From IMG/VR virus record IMGVR_UViG_2711768076_000014, positions 1-22,684 of that record: a stretch of 22,684 bases of DNA; one strand, given 5' to 3'. Below, one piece after another: positions 7,666 to 22,684 of the stretch. How positions within the stretch are numbered: the stretch's first letter is position 1; the number at the start of each line of letters is the position of its first letter. This DNA is from a virus (taxonomy: Duplodnaviria > Heunggongvirae > Uroviricota > Caudoviricetes). A program made the translations under genes and the position numbers. The notes below the pieces were generated by a model. The model was not told the origin of the DNA and did no database searches. It was given only the letters and a program-made list of their open reading frames with translations.

Positions 7666-10600
7666 ATGACTCATCAAACACACACCATTGCTGAATCCAA
7701 TAACTTTATCGTCCTTGATAAGTACATCAAAGCTGAGCAAACAAGCGACAGCTACCAGAGCGAATCGGACCTGGAACGTGAACTGATTCAGGACCTGCGG
7801 AATCAGGGTTATGAATTTATTTCGGTAAAATCACAGTCAGCGATGCAGGCCAACGTTCGGGAACAGCTTCAGAGCCTCAATGGTGTGGTGTTTAATGACA
7901 GCGAGTGGCGGCGTTTCACGGAGCAGTATCTGGATAACCCGAGCGATGGCATTCTGGATAAGACCCGTAAAATCCATATCGACTATATTTGCGACTTTAT
8001 TTTTGATGACGAGCGTCTTGAGAACATCTATTTGATAGATAAAAAGAATCTCATGCGCAATAAGGTGCAGATTATCCAGCAGTTTGAGCAGGCGGGTTCT
8101 CATGCTAACCGTTATGACGTCACGATCCTGGTTAATGGCTTACCACTGGTACAAATCGAACTGAAAAAGCGCGGCGTGGCGATTCGTGAGGCTTTCAACC
8201 AGATACATCGTTACAGTAAAGAGAGTTTTAACAGCGAAAATTCCCTGTTTAAGTATCTGCAACTGTTTGTCATTTCTAACGGCACCGATACCCGTTACTT
8301 TGCCAACACCACAAAGCGCGATAAAAACAGTTTTGACTTCACCATGAACTGGGCGAAATCAGACAACACGCTGATTAAAGACCTCAAAGATTTTACCGCT
8401 ACCTTTTTCCAGAAACATACTCTGCTTAATGTTCTGGTGAACTACAGCGTGTTCGATATTAGCCAGACGCTACTGGTGATGCGACCGTACCAGATTGCCG
8501 CTACCGAACGGATCTTATGGAAAATCAACAGTTCCTATAAAGCGAAAAACTGGTCTAACCCCGAAAGCGGTGGCTTTATCTGGCACACTACCGGTTCCGG
8601 TAAAACACTGACCAGCTTTAAAGCCGCGCGCCTGGCAACAGAACTGGACTTTATTGATAAAGTCTTCTTTGTGGTCGACAGGAAAGACCTCGATTACCAG
8701 ACGATGAAGGAATATCAGCGTTTTTCCCCAGACAGCGTCAACGGCTCGGAAAATACCGCAGGCCTTAAACGAAATCTGGATAAGGACGATAACAAAATTA
8801 TCGTCACCACTATTCAGAAACTTAATAACCTGATGAAAGCAGAAAGCGACCTGCCTGTATACAATCAGCAAGTGGTGTTTATATTTGATGAATGTCACCG
8901 CAGCCAGTTTGGAGAAGCGCAGAAAAATCTGAAGAAGAAATTCAAACGCTATTATCAGTTTGGTTTTACCGGCACACCTATTTTCCCGGAAAACGCTTTA
9001 GGCTCAGAAACGACCGCCAGCGTATTTGGTCGTGAATTGCATTCATATGTGATTACCGATGCGATTCGTGATGAAAAAGTGCTCAAATTCAAGGTGGACT
9101 ATAACGATGTGCGGCCCCAGTTTAAATCTTTAGAGACAGAAACCGACGAGAAAAAACTGAGTGCGGCTGAAAATCAGCAGGCGTTTCTTCATCCCATGCG
9201 TATACAGGAAATTACGCAATATATTCTGAATAACTTCCGCCAGAAGACCCACCGTACTTTCCCAGGTTCCAAAGGCTTTAATGCCATGCTGGCAGTGAGT
9301 AGCGTGGATGCCGCGAAAGCCTATTACGCGACGTTTAAACGGTTACAAGAGGAAGCAGCTAATAAATCGGCTACCTATAAACCGCTGCGTGTTGCGACAA
9401 TCTTCTCCTTTGCCGCCAATGAAGAACAAAATGCCATTGGTGAAATTTCCGATGAAACTTTTGATACCAGCGCAATGGACAGCAGTGCTAAAGAGTTTCT
9501 TGACGCTGCAATTCGTGAGTATAACAGCTATTTTAAAACTAACTTCAGCACCGACAGTAACGGTTTTCAGAACTACTATCGTGATTTAGCCCAACGGGTT
9601 AAAAATCAGGATATCGATCTGTTAATTGTCGTTGGGATGTTTTTAACCGGCTTCGACGCTCCAACATTGAACACGCTATTCGTCGATAAAAACTTGCGTT
9701 TTCACGGCCTGATGCAGGCATTCTCCCGCACCAACCGCATTTATAACGCCACTAAAACCTTCGGTAACATCGTCACTTTCCGGGATCTGGAACGCTCAAC
9801 CATTGATGCCATAACGCTGTTTGGTGATAAAAATACCAAAAATGTAGTGTTAGAAAAGAGTTATGCAGAGTATATGGAAGGCTTTACTGATGCTGCCACT
9901 GGTGAAGCTAAACGCGGCTTTATGGCAGTAGTTTCAGAACTGGAACAACGGTTCCCTGACCCTGCCAGTATTGAAAGTGAAAAAGAGAAGAAAGACTTCG
10001 TTAAACTGTTTGGTGAATACCTGCGTGCCGAGAACATCCTGCAAAACTATGATGAATTTGCCACGCTGAAAGCCCTGCAACAAATCGATCTTAGCGATCC
10101 TGTTGCGGTAGAAAAATTCAAAGAAGAACATTATGTGGATGATGAAAAGTTCGCTGAATTACAAACGATTCGTCTCCCTGCTGAACGCAAGATTCAGGAT
10201 TATCGTTCTGCCTATAACGATATTCGTGACTGGCAGCGCCGCGAGAAAGAGGCTGGCAAAAAAGAAAAGTTAACTACTGACTGGGATGACGTGGTTTTTG
10301 AAATCGATTTGCTGAAGTCTCAGGAAATAAACCTGGATTATATCCTTGGACTGATTTTCGAACACAACAGACAAAACAAAGGTAAGGGCGAAATGACCGA
10401 AGAGGTCAAGCGCTTAATTCGTTCGAGCCTTGGGAACCGTGCCAAAGAAGGTCTGGTGGTCGATTTTATTCAACAAACAAACCTGGATGATTTGCCGGAT
10501 AAAGCCAGCATCATTGACGCGTTTTTTACCTTTGCTCAACGCGAACAGCAACGTGAAGCAGAAGCATTGATCAAAGAAGAAAATCTCAATGAAGAGGCGG

Positions 10601-11262: not shown

Positions 11263-12210
11263 TTAAATTTCATATTTTGAAATTTCGCTGATTACATCAT
11301 CCCCATATTTCTTAATCATGGAGGCAAAGAATTTATGTTCAATAAATTTCGCATAGCCTAATTCTCCTTTAAGGGTTAGAATTTCTTTCTCAGATAAAAC
11401 CCCACACACATAATAATGTATTTTACTTCTTAAAAGACGCTTTCTATCACGACCTAAAGACAAATAACCATCAGTCGTAATAGTTACACCAGTTACATGT
11501 CTATTAAACTTCCTTGAGGTAAAAACTGTTTTCTCATGGTTTATTTTAATATTCCTAAGATTTACTACGTTAAGAACTTCCCTTACTAACTTAGGAACAT
11601 CAAATAAAGCTCCTTTGACTTTGGTGCTAAACGTAAGATCATCAGCATACCTTGAGTAGGTAATACCCAAATCCTTGCATCTTTTCGATATTTCCTCATC
11701 GAAGAAATACATTACTGTATTTGAAATAATGGGAGAAGAAGGTGCTCCAACACTTAGGCGTAACGGGCTATTTCTTCTTAACTTCCAGAAGAAAAGATTT
11801 TTAAGAACAAAGATATCAGTATCAGTTAGTTCAACGCCATAATCTTTTAAGACAGATAAAAGATTATGGGGTTTGATACTCATAAAAAAGTTTTTAAAAT
11901 CCATTTTAAGCAAATAATCATTATTACAATGCATTAACGCATTAGATCTAATACTTTTATCGGCTTCATAAGCGAAAGCATTTTCATGAACTTTCAAATT
12001 AGCCAACATATGATTGATTACTACCTTCTGTAAGGCTTTAACTTGCCTAGCTGGTTGTGCAATTAATCTATATCCATTACCATTTCTTTTGGCGATAGGA
12101 TAAATTTTATATCTGCGTGGAATAGTAACAATATACCTTTTAGCCTCTTCTTCGCTAAGAAAAAGACCTTTTGAAATATAACTTAGCAACTCCATTCTAA
12201 GCCCCTCCAC
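11263..12210 (-). CDS. Retron-type reverse transcriptase, 315 aa
   Basis: RT blocks YRLIAQPARQVKALQKVV, LKMDFKNFFMSI, SVGAPSSPIISN, YSRYADDLTFS (YADD catalytic box) and VTGVTIT (retron VTG signature); size as for Ec73/Ec86-class retron RTs. Confidence 0.85.
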   Translation of the reverse strand: MEGLRMELLSYISKGLFLSEEEAKRYIVTIPRRYKIYPIAKRNGNGYRLIAQPARQVKALQKVVINHMLANLKVHENAFAYEADKSIRSNALMHCNNDYLLKMDFKNFFMSIKPHNLLSVLKDYGVELTDTDIFVLKNLFFWKLRRNSPLRLSVGAPSSPIISNTVMYFFDEEISKRCKDLGITYSRYADDLTFSTKVKGALFDVPKLVREVLNVVNLRNIKINHEKTVFTSRKFNRHVTGVTITTDGYLSLGRDRKRLLRSKIHYYVCGVLSEKEILTLKGELGYAKFIEHKFFASMIKKYGDDVISEISKYEI

Positions 12211-13183
12211 GCACGATATTGATTTGATTTAGAGCATTTTTCCTTTTTTTTGCAGTCTCGTCCATATCTTTAGCATCCATACTTAAGTAAGATTGTCGGA
12301 TTGCAACCTTAATATTCATAGAATCCTTTATTTTACCACTAGCACTGATACCAAATTTAAGTTTACTCTCTCTATGCCCTCGGGAATAGAAGTAGTCTGT
12401 ACCACTGTAAGATAATGATGAGGTTAATTTCATCTTTTCAAGCAAATAAAGTAAACGAGTTATTATTTTTTGTGGCACATCTATATCCATACAGTATAGT
12501 GCCCACTCTATTTCGCTTTTCTTGATTGGTTCTGATAAAAGGATTATTTCGTAAATCAATATAGCTAGGTGCCCAGTATTTTCAGGGTTATATCGCTCCG
12601 TTTTTTTTACACGTTTTAATCTAGAATGAATATCATGGTAGATAAGCTCAACCTCATCATATTTCATACGATCCGATTTTGGCCATGGATAAACTGATAC
12701 TGAGGCCTCATCTATTTTTTTAAGATACTCCAAAGGGCCTAAATATATAAAAGAAGATCTAGCAGGAATATTTTTTCGTTCATTTCCCTCAATCTCCTCA
12801 AATGGTGCGACTACATGCAATTTTTGAGCTAGAGACTTCCTATTAACAAATAATCCAAGCTCAACTAACGAACCTGCACTTTCTAAACAGATAACAACTA
12901 ATGTTGAAATATTTGCAATATCATCTTCAAAGCTCATTAGATCTGAATATGCCCCCTCTCTGAAGTAGTCATGGAAGTTCTCAGCTAAAATAAGAGAATC
13001 TGACAATTCAGGTTTGTGGCCTGCTACATAAGTAAATATGTGGTCTCGTACACTCATTGGAGTGGAATTTATCGGCCCACCACAAACAAAAATAATAGGA
13101 GGCATGAACTGAACAGTGAAATTTGAATATTTCAAATCTCCAAACTGCTCTTGTAATGCATTCATATATGCAGAATCACTCAC
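12197..13183 (-). CDS. Retron accessory/effector protein (type II-like, possibly nucleoside deoxyribosyltransferase-like plus DNA-binding), 328 aa
   Basis: Lies between the msd hairpin and the RT gene and overlaps the RT start by 14 bp; AT-rich like the RT gene; family assigned by context only. Start is GTG at 13183 or ATG at 13165. Confidence 0.6.
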   Translation of the reverse strand: MSDSAYMNALQEQFGDLKYSNFTVQFMPPIIFVCGGPINSTPMSVRDHIFTYVAGHKPELSDSLILAENFHDYFREGAYSDLMSFEDDIANISTLVVICLESAGSLVELGLFVNRKSLAQKLHVVAPFEEIEGNERKNIPARSSFIYLGPLEYLKKIDEASVSVYPWPKSDRMKYDEVELIYHDIHSRLKRVKKTERYNPENTGHLAILIYEIILLSEPIKKSEIEWALYCMDIDVPQKIITRLLYLLEKMKLTSSLSYSGTDYFYSRGHRESKLKFGISASGKIKDSMNIKVAIRQSYLSMDAKDMDETAKKRKNALNQINIVRGGA

Positions 13184-13204
13184 CCTTGTGACCCCCTACT
13201 CCAA

Positions 13205-13480
13205 AAGAAAAGGTGGCTAACCAGCCACCTTCGACCCCTTTACCTAAAGGATGCGCTTTAGACTTTCAGCAAGATCCTGAATGGAACGCAGTGGCATGAA
13301 GGATCTTGCTGAAAGTGCTAAAGCGCAACCCTAAATGTCCACAATAAATTAGTGTCTGGCGAAACGCCCGACAAGGATAAACCTGTTATCCCGCGCGTAA
13401 AGGTAGGGTTAGGATAGCAAAAGATGCGAGATTTTCAATAAGTAAGCGTACTGGCTGCCAGCAACCACCTAAACCATTGA
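13205..13480 (-). ncRNA. Retron msr-msd non-coding RNA (approximate bounds)
   Basis: Upstream of the effector gene: short stem-loops (ggataa/ttatcc 13374-13390; ggcg/cgcc about 13354-13364; aacccta/tagggtt) typical of msr, plus a 27-bp near-perfect hairpin at 13254..13325 typical of msd; a1/a2 repeats not found with confidence. Confidence 0.5.
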
Positions 13481-13810: not shown

Positions 13811-14083
13811 TCAGACAGGAATCTGCTGACGGCTTGACAGTTTTGACGCGGAGCCATAGCGATTGAGCGTTTTCTGTTGTTTTTCCGGGGATTGTGCTTT
13901 GTCTGATAGCTGTTCATTGCGCCGGGGTTTCATGATTATCTTATCCACACTCTCCAGTGCCGTAAATGTGCAGGAACATTCCAGATTCTGGCACTGATAC
14001 CACGAGCGTTTAACTGACGGAGCTTCATAGGCTGCTGTTCTGGCGTGTGCAACTGTACCGCATTCCGGACATTTAAGTGCCAT
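13811..14083 (-). CDS. Ogr/Delta-family zinc-finger late-gene transcriptional activator, about 90 aa
   Basis: MALKCPECG...YQCQNLECSCTF matches the Cys4 Ogr/Delta pattern; AGGAG sits 8 nt before the ATG at 14083 (the six-frame ORF extends to a GTG at 14092). Confidence 0.8.
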   Translation of the reverse strand: MALKCPECGTVAHARTAAYEAPSVKRSWYQCQNLECSCTFTALESVDKIIMKPRRNEQLSDKAQSPEKQQKTLNRYGSASKLSSRQQIPV

Positions 14084-14088
14084 TAATA

Positions 14089-14640
14089 TCACTCCTGTAT
14101 ATCGTTAATGTCATTCAGGCGTTGCTGAAAACGCAGATGTTGTGCCGGGGTGTAAGAACCCTGGCAATCACGAATCATCCCGGGGTCAGGCATCAAACCG
14201 GATTCATCCAGGATCTCACGATAATCCCCGGCAATTTCAGGCGGTGTTATTGCCAGCTGGCGAACCAGAGCACTGCGTAATATACGGGACGCAACGTCAA
14301 CCCCTCCGCGCCCCTTCAGGAACGGAGCCAGTGCAGATGTCAGGGCTGCCCCATTCGCCTGCATAAAATTGCTGAGAGCGGCTTCTGTGCAGGCCTCCAT
14401 CAGTAAATGCTGCGAGTAAATGCATTCGCGCGCAGCACAGTTAATTTGCCATTTCAGCACATCCAGACGTTCCCGCAGTAATTCGAGCTGTCGGGCATAA
14501 TCTGCTGGTTTTTCTGTGGCAGCGAGGAGAGATGTTATCTGTTGTTCAACGGCTTTTCGGCTCTCATTATGTCCGGCCCACAGAATACGGGCATTCCGAA
14601 AACTGGTAAGTGCCTGGTCAGGCGTGCCTCGGGCCGTCAT
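14089..14640 (-). CDS. psu: Psu-like polarity-suppression / capsid-decoration protein, 183 aa
   Basis: Blocks LKWQINCAAR, FMQANGAALTSALAPFL and YTPAQHL resemble my recollection of P4 Psu (190 aa); ATGA overlap with the upstream gene. Confidence 0.55.
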   Translation of the reverse strand: MTARGTPDQALTSFRNARILWAGHNESRKAVEQQITSLLAATEKPADYARQLELLRERLDVLKWQINCAARECIYSQHLLMEACTEAALSNFMQANGAALTSALAPFLKGRGGVDVASRILRSALVRQLAITPPEIAGDYREILDESGLMPDPGMIRDCQGSYTPAQHLRFQQRLNDINDIQE

Positions 14641-15380
14641 ACTGCTTTCTCCTTCTCAGCAAGTTCCTGACGAACCTTAATTTTATGCATAGCTGCCGGA
14701 GAGAGTTGATTACTGAAATCCAGACGCGCCGCATAATCCGGGGCAACTCCCGCCAGTTTAAACACCGGGTCCTGCTCAGGCATCGCATCGTTAGCCAGAG
14801 CCGGTCTGGTGATATGTTTATGAATAAAGTCTTTCAGCACTGTGTCCGGGTCATTAACTGAATTCACCACACCCACAACGGCACTGGCTTCCCGGCCCAT
14901 TGTGGATTTAAGCAGGCTCAGCGTCTGAATAAGCGCTTTTCCATGCGACTGCATAAAATCCTCCCAGATTTGTTTTGCGCGAATATCCACAAGAATGTTA
15001 TGCGCGTGGATATACTTTCCGGCTAATTCTGCAGCTTTCTGCGGCAAAAGTGCATTTTCGCTTTCCTGAGCCGCCAGCAGCTCATCAAAATCCTCAAGCG
15101 TTTCTCGTCCCAGCGCAATTTCCGTGCGCAGTTTTTTCATTTCCTTTGAGACCACGCCCTGACTTTCACGAAACAGCGTGCGCCACTCCTCATTCAGTGT
15201 GTTCGTCGTGGCTTCCATTTCAGCGCGACGCTGGCGGATTGTCGCAATATTATCCGCTGCCGCTTTCTGCTGACGACGTGCTTCAAGCCATGCGTTTCTG
15301 GCTGTGTTCATGGTTTCCAGTGCCCGCTGCGTTACAGCCGGAAAAGTGGAAAGGTTGTTATTCACTGCGGTGTTGTTCAT
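14637..15380 (-). CDS. Sid-like external scaffold (capsid size determination) protein, 247 aa, tentative
   Basis: Size close to P4 Sid (244 aa), Ala/Glu/Arg-rich helical character, first gene of the operon with Psu and Ogr/Delta, preceded by AGGAG and TGT-N12-ACA dyads; no direct motif match recalled. Confidence 0.4.
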   Translation of the reverse strand: MNNTAVNNNLSTFPAVTQRALETMNTARNAWLEARRQQKAAADNIATIRQRRAEMEATTNTLNEEWRTLFRESQGVVSKEMKKLRTEIALGRETLEDFDELLAAQESENALLPQKAAELAGKYIHAHNILVDIRAKQIWEDFMQSHGKALIQTLSLLKSTMGREASAVVGVVNSVNDPDTVLKDFIHKHITRPALANDAMPEQDPVFKLAGVAPDYAARLDFSNQLSPAAMHKIKVRQELAEKEKAV

Positions 15381-15415
15381 GACTTCTCCTGTCGGGTTGG
15401 TTCGTTACGTCAATT

Positions 15416-15471
15416 GTGTCGTGGCTGACACAAGCACACTATCGGTGCTCAGTGTGTGGTGGCTGGCACAA
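15416..15471 (-). promoter_or_regulatory. Two TGT-N12-ACA dyads (putative Ogr/Delta-dependent late promoter of the sid-psu-delta operon)
   Basis: tgtGTCGTGGCTGACaca at 15416-15433 and tgtGTGGTGGCTGGCaca at 15454-15471, 36 to 82 bp upstream of the sid-like ATG; P2/P4 late promoters carry this element. Confidence 0.5.
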
Positions 15472-15558
15472 CGGACGCTTGCGGTTATTCAGACGTGGCT
15501 ATGAAAGCCAGCCAGATAAAAATGCCCTCTGTTTCAGTCTGCTTTATGTCCCTGATGC

Positions 15559-15747
15559 GGTGGAACAGGTGAAACATGTGTTACAGCTTTGTTTTATAAG
15601 GCATTTATATACACTGCACCGGTGGAACATCGCGGGTAACAAGGTGGAACAGCGGATTGGCTGGCGTTACATCTGTTCCACCTCACTATTTCAGAAGGTG
15701 GAACAGGTTCAGCCCTGTAAAATACGGTTGTTCCACCTGTTTCACCT
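15559..15747. repeat. Iteron array: at least 6 copies of GGTGGAACAG / CTGTTCCACC in both orientations (putative ori or crr)
   Basis: Copies at 15559, 15621 (variant), 15643, 15673 (inverted), 15697, 15728 (inverted), plus tgtttcacc at 15739; immediately downstream of the primase gene; resembles the P4 alpha-binding octamer TGTTCACC (from memory). Confidence 0.5.
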
Positions 15748-15780: not shown

Positions 15781-18453
15781 TTAACCCGGCACCTCGCTGT
15801 TGAAGACATAGAGCCTGCGGGGATTCATCTCTGGCGGGCGAATGGTTGTCTGGAGTTTGCCATCAGTGGAGGGCAGCAGGTATCCACGATCTGCGCACAG
15901 ACGCGCCACCTTGCGCGGGTCAAATCCCCTGCAGATTTCTTTCCAGCCGGACGGCATGACATAGAACGTAGTGACAGCTTCCGTGCCCTGCGCGGTACTG
16001 CCTTTCTCCACCCTGCGCCAGCCCACCATATTGCCGGGGCGGTTGCGCTCGTCATACCAGTCTGCAAAGCGGCTGTACTGATTCGCGGTAAAGAAACTGC
16101 GAACCTGCTCCAGTGCGGCGATATCTTCCTGATTGGCGGTGTGCCCGCGATCTTTCAGCCATGCGTTCAGGCAGACGCGGGTTGCCCGCAGTGCTTCACC
16201 CTCAGGCCAGCCGGTGATACCCAGACGGGTTGCCAGTTCACCTGCCATCGCCACCAGAGCAAAGCGGTTCACAGCCCGGCCCACCTGATTGCCTGCATCT
16301 TTCGGAGTCAGGGCGGCAGCATATTCCTTCATCAGCGATTTTGCCTGTGCCGTTAGTCCGTTAAGATCAGCGGTCAGTGCTTTCAGCCACTCCCGGAACG
16401 GCGAACCGTAGTAGCAGGACGTGGCCCATTCAAGATGCTCTGCCAGAGCCTTGCCGCTGTCGAAGCCGTGCAGCTCCTCAAAAACGCCAAACTTCCCGGA
16501 ATCGCTGGGGATCTGGATCATCCTGACTTCCATCCCGGCAAAAGTACGCTCACCGGCCTTTGCCGCATGTTCGGTCAGAGACAACTCGCCAGTTGAAAAG
16601 AACAACAGGCGCCAATGCTTACGGGTACGCAGCTCACCGTCCGTACCGGCACGGCCCTTGCCCTGACCGTTTGCCAGCATGTAGGCGATATTGCCTGCCT
16701 CGCGTCCGTCAACTTCCCGGATCTCATCAAGCATCATGGCGGCATCGTTGCGGCGGCTGGCGCATCCCTCCAGCGCGTTGCCGGTGGCCCGCCATGTCTG
16801 CCAGTAGTCAGGCCCGCCGCAGACGGAGGTTGCCGCTTTCATGGTGGTGGTCTTACCGTCTGTCGATTCCCCTTTGAGGTGGTAGCCGCCGCCGTCCATA
16901 CCAACCAGCCGTAACAGTGGTGCAGCAAAGGCCAGGCTGACAGCAAATGCCACGCGGGAGTTGCCGGTACAGTAGCGGGATACATGCTCCCGCCATTCCT
17001 CTGTTGTGCCCGACACGCGGAAATCACGCCCCTGCACGGAAGTGGTCTGGAGAATGACACCCTCTGCACCTTCACCGCTGACCTCATCCTGCAGGACGTA
17101 AACCTGACCATGCCAGCCAGTACGACTGACGCAGGTCACGCGGCGTTCCGGTTTACACAGTGAGATATATTCCATCAGGCGTGCGCGTGCCTCACCGGTG
17201 GTGCTGATATAAGACAGCCCGTTAACCAGCAATACCCGGCGCAGTTCCTCACCACTGCCGCTCAGCATTTCCATCGGCATCGCCCAGCGGCGACACTCAC
17301 CCCACGTATCTTCCCATTCCAGCAGTCGTCCGAAGTTACCGCCATCGGCATCGCAGGTGATTGCCGTCACGCGCAGCGGGCTGCATATTTTGACGTTCTG
17401 GATCTCCGTCTCACCGTTGCGCTGTACCTGCTTTTCATACCAGAGATATTCCTGGGTAAGACGGAACCCGTGCGGCAGTTGCGTGCGGCCCTCCCCGCAC
17501 AGCACCAGACCGTTACGAAAGGCTTCACGGGCGCGGGTAATACCGTGCTCCCGATGGAAGTCATTCCAGTCGGCCTTAATCTCTCCCGGTGGCAGCGTCA
17601 TCCAGCCGCCAACAGCTTTTGCCGCCCGTTCAGCAAAGGCTCTGCCGGGATTCTCACCCCCGTCCTGAAAATCGTTATCACCGGCGATGATAATTTTTAC
17701 CTCAGGCCAGCGTGCCCGCAGCGACTGCGCCACATTGGGCAGGTTGCCCGCAGATATGGCAGCCACTACGCATCCGGCAGTGAGCTGACTTACCGTCAGC
17801 GCCGTAGCGTAACCTTCGGTAATCACCACCTGTACCGGTGGTTCAGACGGTAACGGGCTGAGCGACACAAACGCGCCTTTCATCGTGCTGCCGGGCAGTA
17901 TGCTTTTTTCACCCGTCGGGGCGATAAGCTGTGCACCAGTCACGGCTCCGGTGTTGGTCGTGAGTGGTAACAGCAGGGAACCGGCAGGAAAATCCTTACC
18001 GCTGATATGCTGCACGCTTCCGGTCAGAGAGGCCGGGTATCCGGCGAACCCTTTTCCTGTCAGATAGGCGCTTTCTCCCGTGTGGCTCTCTTTCATCAGC
18101 GCCGCCACGGTAAGACCCATGTCGCGTTTAGGGGCTTTTTTTCTGGCAGGCTTAACAGGCAGTTCCTGCACATCCGGCACATTAAGCACCTGCGCCACCT
18201 CCTGCGCAGCCTTTCTGACGCTGTAACCGGTTACGAGCTTAACCAGATCCAGACCGTCACCATTGCCACACTGGCTGCAGATCCACGTCCCGCGCCCGTC
18301 AAGGTCATCAAGGCGAAAACGATCCTTGCCCCCACATTTCGGGCAGGGACCGTGCCTGCCGTTTTCAGGTACATCAATACGCAGCATCTGGAGAATAACG
18401 GGCCATTTCCCCCGTGCGGCGGCTGAAATCTGCGTAACCGTCTGTATTGTCAT
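15781..18453 (-). CDS. Phage/plasmid primase-helicase (P4 alpha-like), 890 aa
   Basis: N-terminal zinc-binding CPKCGGKDRF...CSQCGNGDG, Toprim-like IIAGDNDFQDGGENPG, P-loop GESTDGKTT; largest ORF of the element. Confidence 0.85.
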   Translation of the reverse strand: MTIQTVTQISAAARGKWPVILQMLRIDVPENGRHGPCPKCGGKDRFRLDDLDGRGTWICSQCGNGDGLDLVKLVTGYSVRKAAQEVAQVLNVPDVQELPVKPARKKAPKRDMGLTVAALMKESHTGESAYLTGKGFAGYPASLTGSVQHISGKDFPAGSLLLPLTTNTGAVTGAQLIAPTGEKSILPGSTMKGAFVSLSPLPSEPPVQVVITEGYATALTVSQLTAGCVVAAISAGNLPNVAQSLRARWPEVKIIIAGDNDFQDGGENPGRAFAERAAKAVGGWMTLPPGEIKADWNDFHREHGITRAREAFRNGLVLCGEGRTQLPHGFRLTQEYLWYEKQVQRNGETEIQNVKICSPLRVTAITCDADGGNFGRLLEWEDTWGECRRWAMPMEMLSGSGEELRRVLLVNGLSYISTTGEARARLMEYISLCKPERRVTCVSRTGWHGQVYVLQDEVSGEGAEGVILQTTSVQGRDFRVSGTTEEWREHVSRYCTGNSRVAFAVSLAFAAPLLRLVGMDGGGYHLKGESTDGKTTTMKAATSVCGGPDYWQTWRATGNALEGCASRRNDAAMMLDEIREVDGREAGNIAYMLANGQGKGRAGTDGELRTRKHWRLLFFSTGELSLTEHAAKAGERTFAGMEVRMIQIPSDSGKFGVFEELHGFDSGKALAEHLEWATSCYYGSPFREWLKALTADLNGLTAQAKSLMKEYAAALTPKDAGNQVGRAVNRFALVAMAGELATRLGITGWPEGEALRATRVCLNAWLKDRGHTANQEDIAALEQVRSFFTANQYSRFADWYDERNRPGNMVGWRRVEKGSTAQGTEAVTTFYVMPSGWKEICRGFDPRKVARLCADRGYLLPSTDGKLQTTIRPPEMNPRRLYVFNSEVPG

Positions 18454-19505: not shown

Positions 19506-19674
19506 GTTCACCTCCGCAGGGAATGCGCCCGGCAAAGCTCAGTACATAGTCCGGGGCAAGTCTGCGCCGCGCTGACCGCTCGTTATCTGCGGTGATCCTT
19601 AACATCACAGGACGGGCATTGCGTTGACTGCGGTTGATCGCCGCAAATAACCAGGTACACTTCTGTTTAGCCAT
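19498..19674 (-). CDS. Hypothetical small basic protein, about 58 aa
   Basis: GAGGT 7 nt upstream of the ATG at 19674 (MAKQKCTWLF...); stop overlaps the next gene start; C-terminal part of a longer six-frame ORF that I otherwise reject. Confidence 0.35.
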   Translation of the reverse strand: MAKQKCTWLFAAINRSQRNARPVMLRITADNERSARRRLAPDYVLSFAGRIPCGGEHA

Positions 19675-19750
19675 CTTCGTTACCTCATTTAGCGGATTGG
19701 TCAGAAGCCCGGTTAGTGTTGCTGCACTGTCGGGCTTCGCACTCACAAGG

Positions 19751-19840
19751 TGAATCGCACCTTTAATTTTAAAGCTACCCTTAAGTGAATCGCACTTCAA
19801 GCTTTTTATTATCATTTTTTTTGCATATACTGAATCGCAC
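19751..19840. promoter_or_regulatory. Three direct copies of TGAATCGCAC in the divergent control region
   Basis: Exact 10-mers at 19751-19760, 19786-19795 and 19831-19840, between the leftward small-gene cluster and the rightward 61-aa gene; the last copy overlaps a TATACT -10-like hexamer (19826-19831). Confidence 0.4.
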
Positions 19841-19861
19841 CTAACGCGAGGAGATCCAGTA

Positions 19862-20047: not shown

Positions 20048-20143
20048 ATAGAGAAGCCAACAGACGTTCTCTCTGTTTCCATGTTAATTTCAGTAAGCGA
20101 CAATATTTTTAAGCCCACAAATTCATTATGTCGGGCTTTTTTA

Positions 20144-20374
20144 TTAGTGATTTTCATATCGCTCACCACGAGAGGCATATATTTGCTCTTGAATCCAGTG
20201 ATCCACTTCGCTTTCAACAAATGAAATTGCACGAGTTCCTATTTTCACCGGACGGGGAAATGTATTGTTTGCAAGCTGTTTGTAAAGCCATGCCTTGCTA
20301 CGCTGAACGCGTCTTAAGACCTCTTTTGCTGAGATAAGAGTCTGATTATCTGAAAAGCTGTTTGCATATTCCAT
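20144..20374 (-). CDS. alpA: AlpA-family phage transcriptional regulator / excisionase-like HTH protein, about 76 aa
   Basis: LISAKEVLRRVQRSKAWLYKQLANNTFPRPVKIGTRAISFVESEVDHWI is the classic AlpA HTH; GGAG 7 nt before the ATG at 20374 (the six-frame ORF extends to 20419). Confidence 0.8.
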   Translation of the reverse strand: MEYANSFSDNQTLISAKEVLRRVQRSKAWLYKQLANNTFPRPVKIGTRAISFVESEVDHWIQEQIYASRGERYENH

Positions 20375-20753
20375 CTTGTTACTCCGTGTTCTACTTAAGT
20401 TCACGGTGACTTTAAACACTGGGAAAAAGTGATTCTAGTGATAATGGAATCTATTAAGACAAATATTGATTCTATTGAAAAACAATAATCTCCACTGAAA
20501 AAAGAAGTAATATTCATATGAAAGAACACGGAGAGAAGGAAATGCACAAAAAAAAAAACAAAATCAATAGAATTCATATGGATAGGATGGAAAATCAAAA
20601 AATCATATGTCAAAAGGTATTATTGCATTTTAACGATTCATATTACCTAGGAATTAGCACAGTATTACACCATATTACATCGTATTACCCCCTATAGCCC
20701 GTTAGAGCCTCTTGTGGCCCTTCTATTGAGAGATAGCCAGAAAATTAATAAAT

Positions 20754-21421: not shown

Positions 21422-22684
21422 TTATTTTCCATGCATACGCGCAAAATCATATGGTGTGACAGATCCATTCTTATTAGCATCAATATAATCAGCCCACCAC
21501 TGCAGCATTAATCTTCTTTCTTCAAGATATTCGGAAGTATGCATATATGAACCTTTCACATTTTTTCGTTCAACGTGGCTTAACTGTCTTTCAATGGCAT
21601 CATCATTCCATAGTTTCGACTCACTTAGCGCACCACGCGCCATAGTTCTAAACCCATGACCACATACTTCAGTTTTCGTATCATATCCCATTACACGTAA
21701 GGCGTTATTTACTGTATTTTCACTCATTACTTTTTTAGGATCATGATCGCTGGGAAATATAACCTCACCTTTACCACTCAAGGCATGTAAACGTTTAAAA
21801 ATATCAAATGCTTGTTTGCTAAGCGGAACAATATGTTCAGTTTTCATCTTCATCCCACGCTCAGAGTGTTTTACGCCGGGAATAGGCTTACGAATTCCGG
21901 GTATTGTCCACTCGCTTCGTTCAAAGTTAACCTCACTCCAGCGAGCAAAACGCATCTCACTTGAACGTATAAATGTGAGTAGCGTTAATTCAACGGCAAG
22001 CCGTGTCATTAGTCGCCCTTTATAGCGTGATAGTCTTTCAAGAAGCTCAGGGATTCTTTTTGGGGGTAGTGCTGGGTGGTGGGTTGCTTTAACGCTTAAA
22101 AGCGCTCCAGCCATATCGCATGCAGGATTTGATTCAAGGAGGTCATTCTGCACACCAAAACGCATAATTGCGGTTACGCGCTGCATCAGTCGCTGCGCGA
22201 CATCATGTTTACCCGCCGTATCGACAGCTTTGATTGGATTGAGAAGCTGGCTGGTTCTCAACGTTCTGGCATCGATTTGACCTATCGAGGGGAAAATATA
22301 CTGCTCAAGTGTCAGCAGAACACGACGGCTATGATCTTCGCTCCAAGTAAGGTTACTTGCGTGCCATTGCCTTGCGATAGTTTCAAATAAATATGCCCCC
22401 TCAATTTCAGCTTGTGCCCCCTTTTGCTCAGCTTTGGGGTCAATACCCTGAGACAACAATTTCTTTGCTGCATCGCGCTTACCCCGCGCTTCAGCCAAAG
22501 TGACCGTCGGGTATACACCAAAAGCGAGTCGATCTTCCTTTTTGTCAGAGGGGCGGCGATATTTCATGCGCCAGTACTTAGAACCTTTAGGGGAGACCTC
22601 AAGATACAAACCGCCTCCATCAGCCATTTTATAAGCTTTCTCTTTCGGCTTTGCGGTCTCTATCTGGCGAGCGTTGAGTTTCAT
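21422..22684 (-). CDS. int: P4-type tyrosine integrase, 420 aa
   Basis: N-terminal MKLNARQIETAKPKEKAYKMADGGGLYLEVSPKGSKYWRMKYR is the P4-integrase arm-binding signature; C-terminal catalytic region with HGFRTMARG and a downstream Tyr; start codon at the window edge, tRNA presumably just beyond. Confidence 0.9.
   Translation of the reverse strand: MKLNARQIETAKPKEKAYKMADGGGLYLEVSPKGSKYWRMKYRRPSDKKEDRLAFGVYPTVTLAEARGKRDAAKKLLSQGIDPKAEQKGAQAEIEGAYLFETIARQWHASNLTWSEDHSRRVLLTLEQYIFPSIGQIDARTLRTSQLLNPIKAVDTAGKHDVAQRLMQRVTAIMRFGVQNDLLESNPACDMAGALLSVKATHHPALPPKRIPELLERLSRYKGRLMTRLAVELTLLTFIRSSEMRFARWSEVNFERSEWTIPGIRKPIPGVKHSERGMKMKTEHIVPLSKQAFDIFKRLHALSGKGEVIFPSDHDPKKVMSENTVNNALRVMGYDTKTEVCGHGFRTMARGALSESKLWNDDAIERQLSHVERKNVKGSYMHTSEYLEERRLMLQWWADYIDANKNGSVTPYDFARMHGK

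Follow-up and report, generated by a model that had tools for sequence, protein, structure and literature searches.

A 10-bp-phased repeat array upstream of alpA in a P4-like satellite prophage: a candidate helper-sensing switch element

For P4-like elements, a central question is how the satellite recognizes the right helper phage. These elements are present in a large proportion of Enterobacterales genomes, where they account for much of the anti-phage defence cargo. To our knowledge, such recognition is known for P4 in one pair only, that of P2 Cox on PLL. The DNA analyzed here (the window, a stretch of 22,684 nucleotides) raises this question in the spacer upstream of its alpA gene. A sequence-only reading had noted helically phased short repeats in this spacer and proposed a protein-binding array, for a nucleoid protein or a regulator, that would control alpA or silence a foreign cargo gene. 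Which kind of protein would such an array serve, and what would it do to alpA? Our analysis points to a switch element for helper sensing as the most likely role of the array, in preference to nucleoid silencing, because the array lies at the position of the P2-responsive sites of P4.

The spacer and its phased array

The gene content of the window is that of a P4-like satellite prophage at tRNA-Leu, with int, orf212, alpA, primase, Sid-like, Psu and Ogr/Delta genes beside this tRNA gene (Table 1). The cargo beyond the satellite core includes a type I restriction-modification system and a reverse transcriptase. A near-identical element in Escherichia coli 005008 adjoins tRNA-Leu. The same alpA coding sequence is annotated in RefSeq, and the AlpA of the window and the Vis protein of P4 are homologues (26% identity, E=1e-7). 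The spacer between alpA and orf212 was found in 205 of 5426 complete E. coli genomes, in which it is unannotated.

Table 1. Genes and spacer features of the window (positions within the 22,684 nucleotides)
Feature	Coordinates	Strand	Remarks
P4-type integrase (int)	21422-22684	-	satellite gene
orf212, 212 aa	20754-21392	-	phrog_30524; in this family always between int and array
alpA-orf212 spacer, 379 bp	20375-20753	-	proposed alpA control region
Distal phased array, eight units of ~10 bp each, 83 bp	20638-20720	-	from repeat spacing and relatives
ATTCATATG copies	20512-20520 and 20572-20580	+	chance-level repeat
Degenerate IHF-like core AATCAATAGAATT, preceded by A-rich tract	20562-20574	+	overlaps second ATTCATATG copy
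A11 homopolymer (T11 on alpA strand)	20548-20558	+	length varies between isolates
Proximal boxes (A/C)TAGA(A/T)T(C), three to four, ~21 bp apart	20431-20497	-	conserved in relatives
Proximal box 1	20488-20497	-	degenerate in window
Proximal box 2	20468-20477	-	
Proximal box 3	20445-20456	-	
Proximal box 4	20431-20440	-	holds the only -10-like hexamer, TAGAAT (20432-20437)
Conserved alpA leader	20375-20430	-	RBS GGAG 20382-20385; cox-box match 20407-20415
alpA, 76 aa, AlpA/Vis-family winged-helix regulator and excisionase	20144-20374	-	PF05930, E=1e-11
Icd-like gene and several small genes	beyond alpA in gene order	-	satellite genes
TOPRIM/DUF927 primase	15781-18453	-	satellite gene
Sid-like gene	14637-15380	-	satellite gene
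psu	14089-14640	-	satellite gene
Ogr/Delta gene	13811-14092	-	satellite gene

The spacer is AT-rich, as had been stated, with 32% GC over its whole length. On its plus strand TATTAC occurs at 20663, 20673 and 20683, exactly 10 bp apart, with a fourth copy at 20641 and an inverted copy at 20507; 5 of the 20 copies in the 22.7-kb window fall within 182 bp. TRF called a repeat of period 10 at 20663-20688. When the spacer was shuffled 20,000 times with its dinucleotides preserved, three identical hexamers spaced by 10 bp were generated in 2 shuffles, and in 11 when any spacing of 9-12 bp was accepted. The count and the spacing of TATTAC in the sequence-only reading are thus borne out as non-random, while the coordinates that it gave (20662, 20672 and 20682) are one base low. 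The three copies correspond to units 4-6 (20660-20689) of a longer array, whose units on the alpA strand, from 20720 down to 20638, read GGGCCACAAGA, GGCTCTAACG, GGCTATAGGG, GGTAATACGA, TGTAATATGG, TGTAATACTG, TGCTAATTCCT and AGGTAATATGA. The [G/C]TAAT boxes within it are spaced by 10, 10, 11 and 11 bp. The array has the arrangement that defines RDF operators of the Cox/Apl/Xis type, namely at least three adjacent direct repeats about one helical turn apart.

Over the whole spacer, AA/TT periodicity at 10-11 bp was not significant (p ~0.3). Helical phasing therefore holds for the array only, and the earlier description of phased repeats is retained for 20638-20720 and withdrawn for the rest of the spacer. 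The second repeat that had been described, ATTCATATG, does exist, with copies starting at 20512 and 20572 and one-mismatch variants at 20601 and 20636 (not 20511, 20571 and 20635 as first given). However, a repeated complex 9-mer was present in 35% of first-order Markov simulations of the spacer, and window-wide counts of ATTCATATG at up to one mismatch were within expectation. The exact sequence is lineage specific; it is replaced by CTATATGAATTT and CGTATGATTT in close relatives and is absent from distant ones. We therefore no longer regard it as a meaningful repeat.

These properties bear on the proposal that the spacer is a target of nucleoid proteins (H-NS, with or without IHF) that silence alpA or the AT-rich orf212. 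H-NS generally coats AT-rich DNA of this kind, and orf212 and the spacer together span about 1 kb with a GC content of 30-32%, compared with about 50% in the host. However, no part of the spacer is richer in GC than the repeats (42% GC in the array, 27% in the middle of the spacer), and H-NS binding neither needs nor explains direct repeats of 10 bp. The H-NS high-affinity motif TCGATAAATT was not enriched: the window holds 31 matches (30.6 expected), and two of these fall inside the bounds of the spacer. Intrinsic curvature from phased A-tracts was rejected on the AA/TT periodicity and the GC content of the array. Of the properties expected of an H-NS or curvature site, the spacer displays general AT-richness only. 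Direct repeats one helical turn apart are the signature of winged-helix proteins of the Cox/Apl/Xis type and not of H-NS.

The evidence for IHF is divided between the window and its relatives. A perfect IHF consensus, WATCAANNNNTTR, lies on the matching strand at -206 to -216 from the alpA ATG in five of nine relatives, with a chance expectation of 6.5% per spacer, and this conservation speaks for a nucleoid protein. No such consensus is present in the spacer of the window, where the IHF-like core AATCAATAGAATT fails the TTR part. An IHF-type bend about 100 bp downstream of the array may assist in the relatives, where, lying midway, it could bring the distal array to the promoter; for the window we only infer such a bend. 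Taken together, these data do not support the nucleoid-protein array and silencing part of the earlier proposal, which we consider quite unlikely as an account of the spacer. Generic coating of the block of orf212 and spacer by H-NS may nevertheless occur, and the two readings can coexist, with H-NS providing background silencing and the array acting as a specific relief element.

Period and position of the array in relatives

As close relatives, 14 copies of the spacer were aligned, taken from E. coli, Enterobacter and IMG/VR contigs. Of these, 6 have two copies of the unit GTAATACNNT, another 6, the window among them, have three, and one has six perfect copies, which makes the unit a variable-number tandem repeat. 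The fourteenth copy, from E. coli NCTC11023, instead has GGCTATAAGG three to four times at the position of the array. In this isolate the type of array changes together with the orf212 allele, and alpA and the proximal promoter are unchanged. Across the close relatives, the last ~95 bp before the alpA start codon are almost invariant.

Homologues of ORF212 formed 23 clusters, all of them from Enterobacterales. Seven distant loci (44-66% ORF212 identity) keep the order of int, orf212, a spacer of 340-510 bp and an AlpA of 76-84 aa, and their spacers are unalignable with that of the window except near alpA. Autocorrelation was analyzed in nine family spacers covering 44-100% ORF212 identity. Among lags of 5-15, lag 10 was the best in eight of the nine, always at the orf212 end, and the observed value was reached by 0 of 500 shuffles in seven spacers and by 2 of 500 in one. 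The units themselves differ: L235 has three perfect copies of GCTATAAGGA, L227 and L229 have units of the GTGATAACGG type, and L233 has three perfect copies of AGATTGCCAC. The period and the position of the array are therefore conserved and the sequence of its unit is not.

Variation of this kind could also be expected of a neutral minisatellite, that is, of a 10-bp duplication that arose in non-coding DNA by replication slippage and has no binder. Elements that are otherwise 90-99% identical differ in having two, three or six copies, perfect tandem copies are found in L009, L233 and L235, and no cognate protein for the units of the window was found among phage collections and the 15 switch regions described below. 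However, a 10-bp period has been kept at a fixed position despite unrelated unit sequences, and neutral slippage would not hold a one-turn period across such units. The equivalent repeats in P4 are known protein-binding sites, and seven arrays align with helper switch operators, as shown in the next section. We therefore consider a neutral origin rather unlikely.

Counterparts in P4 and in helper phage switches

In the GenBank record of P4, the region upstream of vis (orf88; 8764-9030) contains three 10-bp tandem copies labelled 'ori type 2 repeats' (9176-9205); 8-bp type 1 repeats, TGTTCACC, are annotated in the record as well. On the plus strand, the type 2 repeats read TTAAAGTCA, TTAAAGCCA and TTAAAGCAA, matching the cox-box consensus at 9, 9 and 8 of 9 positions. 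This consensus is TTAAAG/CNCA, and the boxes are spaced by 10-11 bp in a P2 Cox-bound region of at least 70 bp upstream of PLL, the site at which P2 derepresses the P4 prophage (PMC3936717). From the published consensus and our scan with it, we take the type 2 repeats to be Cox boxes. As these likewise lie upstream of vis, the array of the window is their positional counterpart. The original Cox footprint on P4 is reportedly that of Saha et al. 1989.

P2 Cox arrays were defined as at least three (typically six) boxes in direct or mixed orientation, spaced by 10-11 bp over ~70 bp and following TTAAA(G/C)NC(A/C). The array of the window resembles that of P4 in having at least three direct repeats at 10-bp spacing, upstream of an AlpA/Vis-family gene and on the matching strand relative to the gene, and units 1 to 3 are similar to cox-type boxes, with agreement at 7 of 9 positions. 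It differs in its core unit, GTAATAC against TTAAAG/CNCA in P4, and no box in the array of the window reaches 8 of 9 positions of the consensus. In NCTC11023, three boxes with units TTATAGCC(C/A) each match the consensus at 8 of 9 positions, with orientation and spacing as in P4. The copy number of the array is polymorphic, whereas the P4-type segment is almost without length variation in the 985 E. coli genomes that have most of it (of 1069 with any match). The distance from array to start codon is also greater, ~260-345 bp in the window and ~150-175 bp in P4. In addition, the array lies ~200-280 bp upstream of the only -10-like element, whereas in P4 just a few tens of bp separate the Cox boxes from the TGT-N12-ACA box of PLL downstream of them. 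This Ogr/Delta box of late promoters (at ~-55) is absent from the spacer; its sites in the window are at 14054, 15415, 15453 and 21813 only. Finally, the upstream neighbour is orf212 in the window and the divergent sid operon in P4, and the alpha iterons are located elsewhere in the element of the window. The array would, in this comparison, be a variant of the PLL Cox boxes of P4 with a new unit sequence and copy-number polymorphism.

The P4 record also raises the possibility that the repeats are iterons of a replication origin, as it places the three 10-bp repeats inside rep_origin, beside an AT-rich stretch. However, the P4 type 2 repeats fit the cox-box consensus, and the P4 alpha protein is said to bind the type 1 octamer TGTTCACC instead, reportedly from the work of Ziegelin et al. 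1993. Repeats of the TGTTCCACC type, close to this octamer, are present in eight copies in both orientations at 15559-15746, between the primase and sid-like genes, and nowhere in the alpA spacer, which is 5 kb away. Two TGT-N12-ACA boxes, 38 bp apart, adjoin them (15415-15470). The region 15415-15746 is probably an origin/crr merged with a sid-type late promoter in one intergenic region, unlike the arrangement in P4. With iterons and Ogr/Delta boxes located there, we conclude that the spacer is not the origin and is without a late promoter of the Ogr/Delta type; an origin role for the array is very improbable.

In E. coli genomes with P4-type vis upstream regions, the type 2 repeat segment behaves as a replaceable cassette. 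E. coli 980-2 (L145) and GPEC60 (L146) have TTTGCCA three to four times at its position. Local alignment with 3000 shuffles was used to compare 14 satellite arrays with the Cox/Apl switch regions of P2-like phages, 15 in all (from P2, W-phi and 186, from four further IMG/VR types and from eight GenBank phages). The known pair, the P4 array and the P2 Pe-Pc region, served as a positive control, and its score was reached by 0-3 shuffles. The array of 980-2 matched the 186 Apl operators at 30 of 37 positions (0 shuffles), and that of GPEC60 matched the same operators (2-15 shuffles). Matches were also found between L235 and an L150-type P2-like prophage (1-3 shuffles), L232 and PhiR44_2 (1-2), L233 and Klebsiella phage ST16-OXA48phi5.4 (11-21), and L234 and ESSI2 (17-26). 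Arrays of seven satellites other than the window thus match helper switches, each array matching one switch type only. In every helper, the matched segment consists of 10-bp-phased boxes immediately upstream of cox or apl; such segments are, as we understand it, established as Cox operators for P2 and 186 only. Among ~195 array-by-switch comparisons, 4-5 pairs had p<=0.001 where ~0.2 were expected. Because only one pair survives strict Bonferroni correction, the case rests on this excess of low p values. The near copies of the 186 Apl operators in 980-2 and GPEC60 suggest satellites that are tuned to 186-like helpers.

The GTAATAC array of the window matched none of the 15 helper switches (best p=0.04, uncorrected). 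Its first three units agree with the L150-type boxes at 18 of 24 positions, which is not significant. BLAST of the array against 50,697 GenBank phage records returned chance-level matches only, and no phased TATTAC array was found in 80 P2-type early regions from IMG/VR. Two pattern scans of IMG/VR for GTAATA arrays returned unrelated contigs, with no P2-like or satellite-like one among the matches listed.

Known operators resemble the array in architecture rather than in sequence. Cox, Apl and Xis bind direct repeats one turn apart in at least three adjacent sites (PMC7498355, PMC3936717), and Apl combines weak single sites, a need for at least three adjacent ones, cooperative spreading and DNA bending (PMC7498355). 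Phage 186 has seven Apl operators at pR-pL and five at attP; these consist of 6-bp direct repeats spaced by 10-11 bp and are like the array of the window in architecture and presumed binding mode. They differ in that the units of the window are unlike TGGCAA (p=0.04, uncorrected) and in that the Apl operators lie between two face-to-face phage promoters, which they repress. The X1-X1.5-X2 sites of lambda Xis and other excisionase sites share the head-to-tail arrangement, one-turn spacing and small winged-helix binders; the lambda sites lie within an att arm and act in recombination, whereas the array of the window is ~2 kb from att. In Gram-negative phage-inducible chromosomal islands, alpA is reportedly the first regulator, switched on in response to the helper phage. 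The window is like these islands in having alpA as a presumed helper-responsive first regulator, and differs from them in being P4-like, with sid, psu and delta. We found no cis element of this kind in the literature searched. Nor did this literature contain a description of cassette variation upstream of alpA or vis, and Cox is nowhere mentioned in the main comparative paper on P4-like satellites.

Candidate binders and the alpA control region

The array might alternatively be bound by a protein of the satellite itself, either by AlpA in autoregulation, as P4 Vis at PLL, or by ORF212. Proteins of the AlpA/Vis family are recombination-directionality factors; they bind direct repeats that are in phase, and they regulate promoters located outside att as well (PMC7498355). 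A satellite-encoded binder would also fit NCTC11023, in which the array type and the orf212 allele change jointly and both alpA and the proximal promoter are constant. However, AlpA residues 13-61, the DNA-binding core, are nearly invariant across elements whose arrays are quite different, which makes AlpA an unlikely binder. The att-side array of the satellite itself is also made of GGTCT and not of GTAATA. This second 10-bp-phased array, TGGTCT three to four times, is located upstream of int and is flanked by the tRNA-Leu att core and by the Int arm-type sites GGGGGCAT. It is family-wide, being found in L001 at 8360-8400 (just outside the window) and at the matching position in L002, L227, L229 and L231-L235. 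It probably serves as the site of the excisionase (AlpA) and would overlap the int promoter, an arrangement shared with P4. Its GGTCT motif is absent from the alpA spacer.

ORF212 is the other candidate. It has no Pfam match and no detectable DNA-binding domain, a sequence search of the PDB gave no support, and its AlphaFold2 model is all-helical with a mean pLDDT of 64 and matched no PDB fold in Foldseek. On these grounds it was rejected as a DNA-binding protein. In addition, P4 has the array and lacks orf212. We consider binding of the array by either satellite protein unlikely. As a separate observation, the C-terminal GVKKATFYKKIK of ORF212 looks like the recognition helix of a helix-turn-helix.

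The reading that we favour is that of a helper-derived switch protein, and on balance we judge it somewhat probable that a cooperative filament of the Cox/Apl type forms on the array and switches alpA in response to a helper. The spacer would control alpA, which encodes the Vis homologue of a P4-like satellite, and the array would nucleate a cooperative filament of a small winged-helix recombination-directionality or switch protein, most likely supplied by a P2-like helper phage. When the helper enters lytic growth, its Cox-like protein would bind the array and bend or wrap the DNA, turning on alpA and thereby the satellite, as the P4 Cox boxes do upstream of PLL-vis. The array would in effect be a copy of the switch operator of the helper itself, different copies being held by different satellite lineages, and slippage of the 10-bp unit (from two to six copies) would tune cooperativity. 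For the GTAATAC array of the window, we infer from sequence that it binds a protein, which protein this is, and in which direction it acts on alpA. The protein-binding array controlling alpA that was proposed at the outset thus gains plausibility, given a period-10 array kept at a fixed position in otherwise unalignable spacers and its counterpart in the P4 Cox sites, but not as an array of the nucleoid-protein type.

A broader generalization is possible, though we hold it more tentatively and would stop short of calling it probable. P4-like satellites may carry, upstream of alpA or vis, a cassette that can be exchanged and that reproduces the Cox/Apl operator array in the lysis-lysogeny switch of one P2-like helper, so wiring the satellite to one helper immunity type; swapping and slippage of the cassette would re-target and tune it, and GTAATAC would represent an undescribed Cox specificity. 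If the cassette generally copies a helper operator, the helper range of a satellite could be read from its sequence, the cassette would be a compact and swappable determinant of specificity, and the copy-number variants would provide a natural series for cooperative filament formation. For such questions, the window yields a defined fragment of 83 bp and a defined class of candidate proteins.

No full sigma-70 consensus facing alpA was found in the spacer of the window or in those of three relatives, which fits an activator-dependent promoter. The proximal boxes are nearly invariant in relatives but change to TGGAATT in L231, whose AlpA is the most divergent one. A repressor of the helper or of the satellite may act at these boxes. 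Their TAGAA/TAGAT core bears a weak likeness to the layout of the P2 C-repressor operator (GTTTAGAT twice, 22 bp apart, flanking the -10). The sole 9/9 match to the cox-box consensus in the spacer is a single box, TTAAAGTCA, on the minus strand of the alpA leader at 20407-20415. It sits between the -10-like hexamer and the RBS, and distant relatives have TTACAGTCA there.

Several minor features of the spacer were also considered. Two small open reading frames (59 aa on the plus strand and 70 aa on the minus strand) were rejected because the array and homopolymer indels break both frames in relatives, and an RNA element was rejected because no Rfam family matched in or near the spacer. A perfect inverted repeat of 11 nt joins 20382-20392 to 20523-20533, with its downstream arm covering the alpA RBS, and could sequester the RBS in read-through transcripts; this hairpin was set aside, as the complement at 20523-20533 is kept only in the closest relatives. 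The homopolymer at 20548-20558 is A11 in the window, A10 in L001 and A8 in L142 among near-identical isolates and is replaced in other variants. The variation in its length may be sequencing noise or may reflect a hypermutable tract beside the IHF-like core.

Further observations concern the neighbouring parts of the element. The RVT_1 reverse transcriptase at 11263-12210 overlaps a 328-aa gene at 12197-13183 without a Pfam match, and nested inverted repeats lie upstream at 13249-13330. The layout of 11263-13330 looks like a retron or a related cargo defence module; Rfam gave no match in this region. In the divergent region between the Icd-like and ylcI/ynfO-like genes (19751-19842), TGAATCGCACCT occurs three times (19751, 19786 and 19831) and may represent a set of operators or an element of RNA immunity. 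The region of these repeats is overlapped by a weak SymR-like match in Rfam, below threshold, at 19669-19741. Finally, the interval that separates alpA from the convergent ylcI-like gene holds a GC-rich hairpin with a T-run on the plus strand (20111-20142). This hairpin probably acts as a bidirectional terminator, in which case alpA would be a short transcription unit apart from the primase operon.
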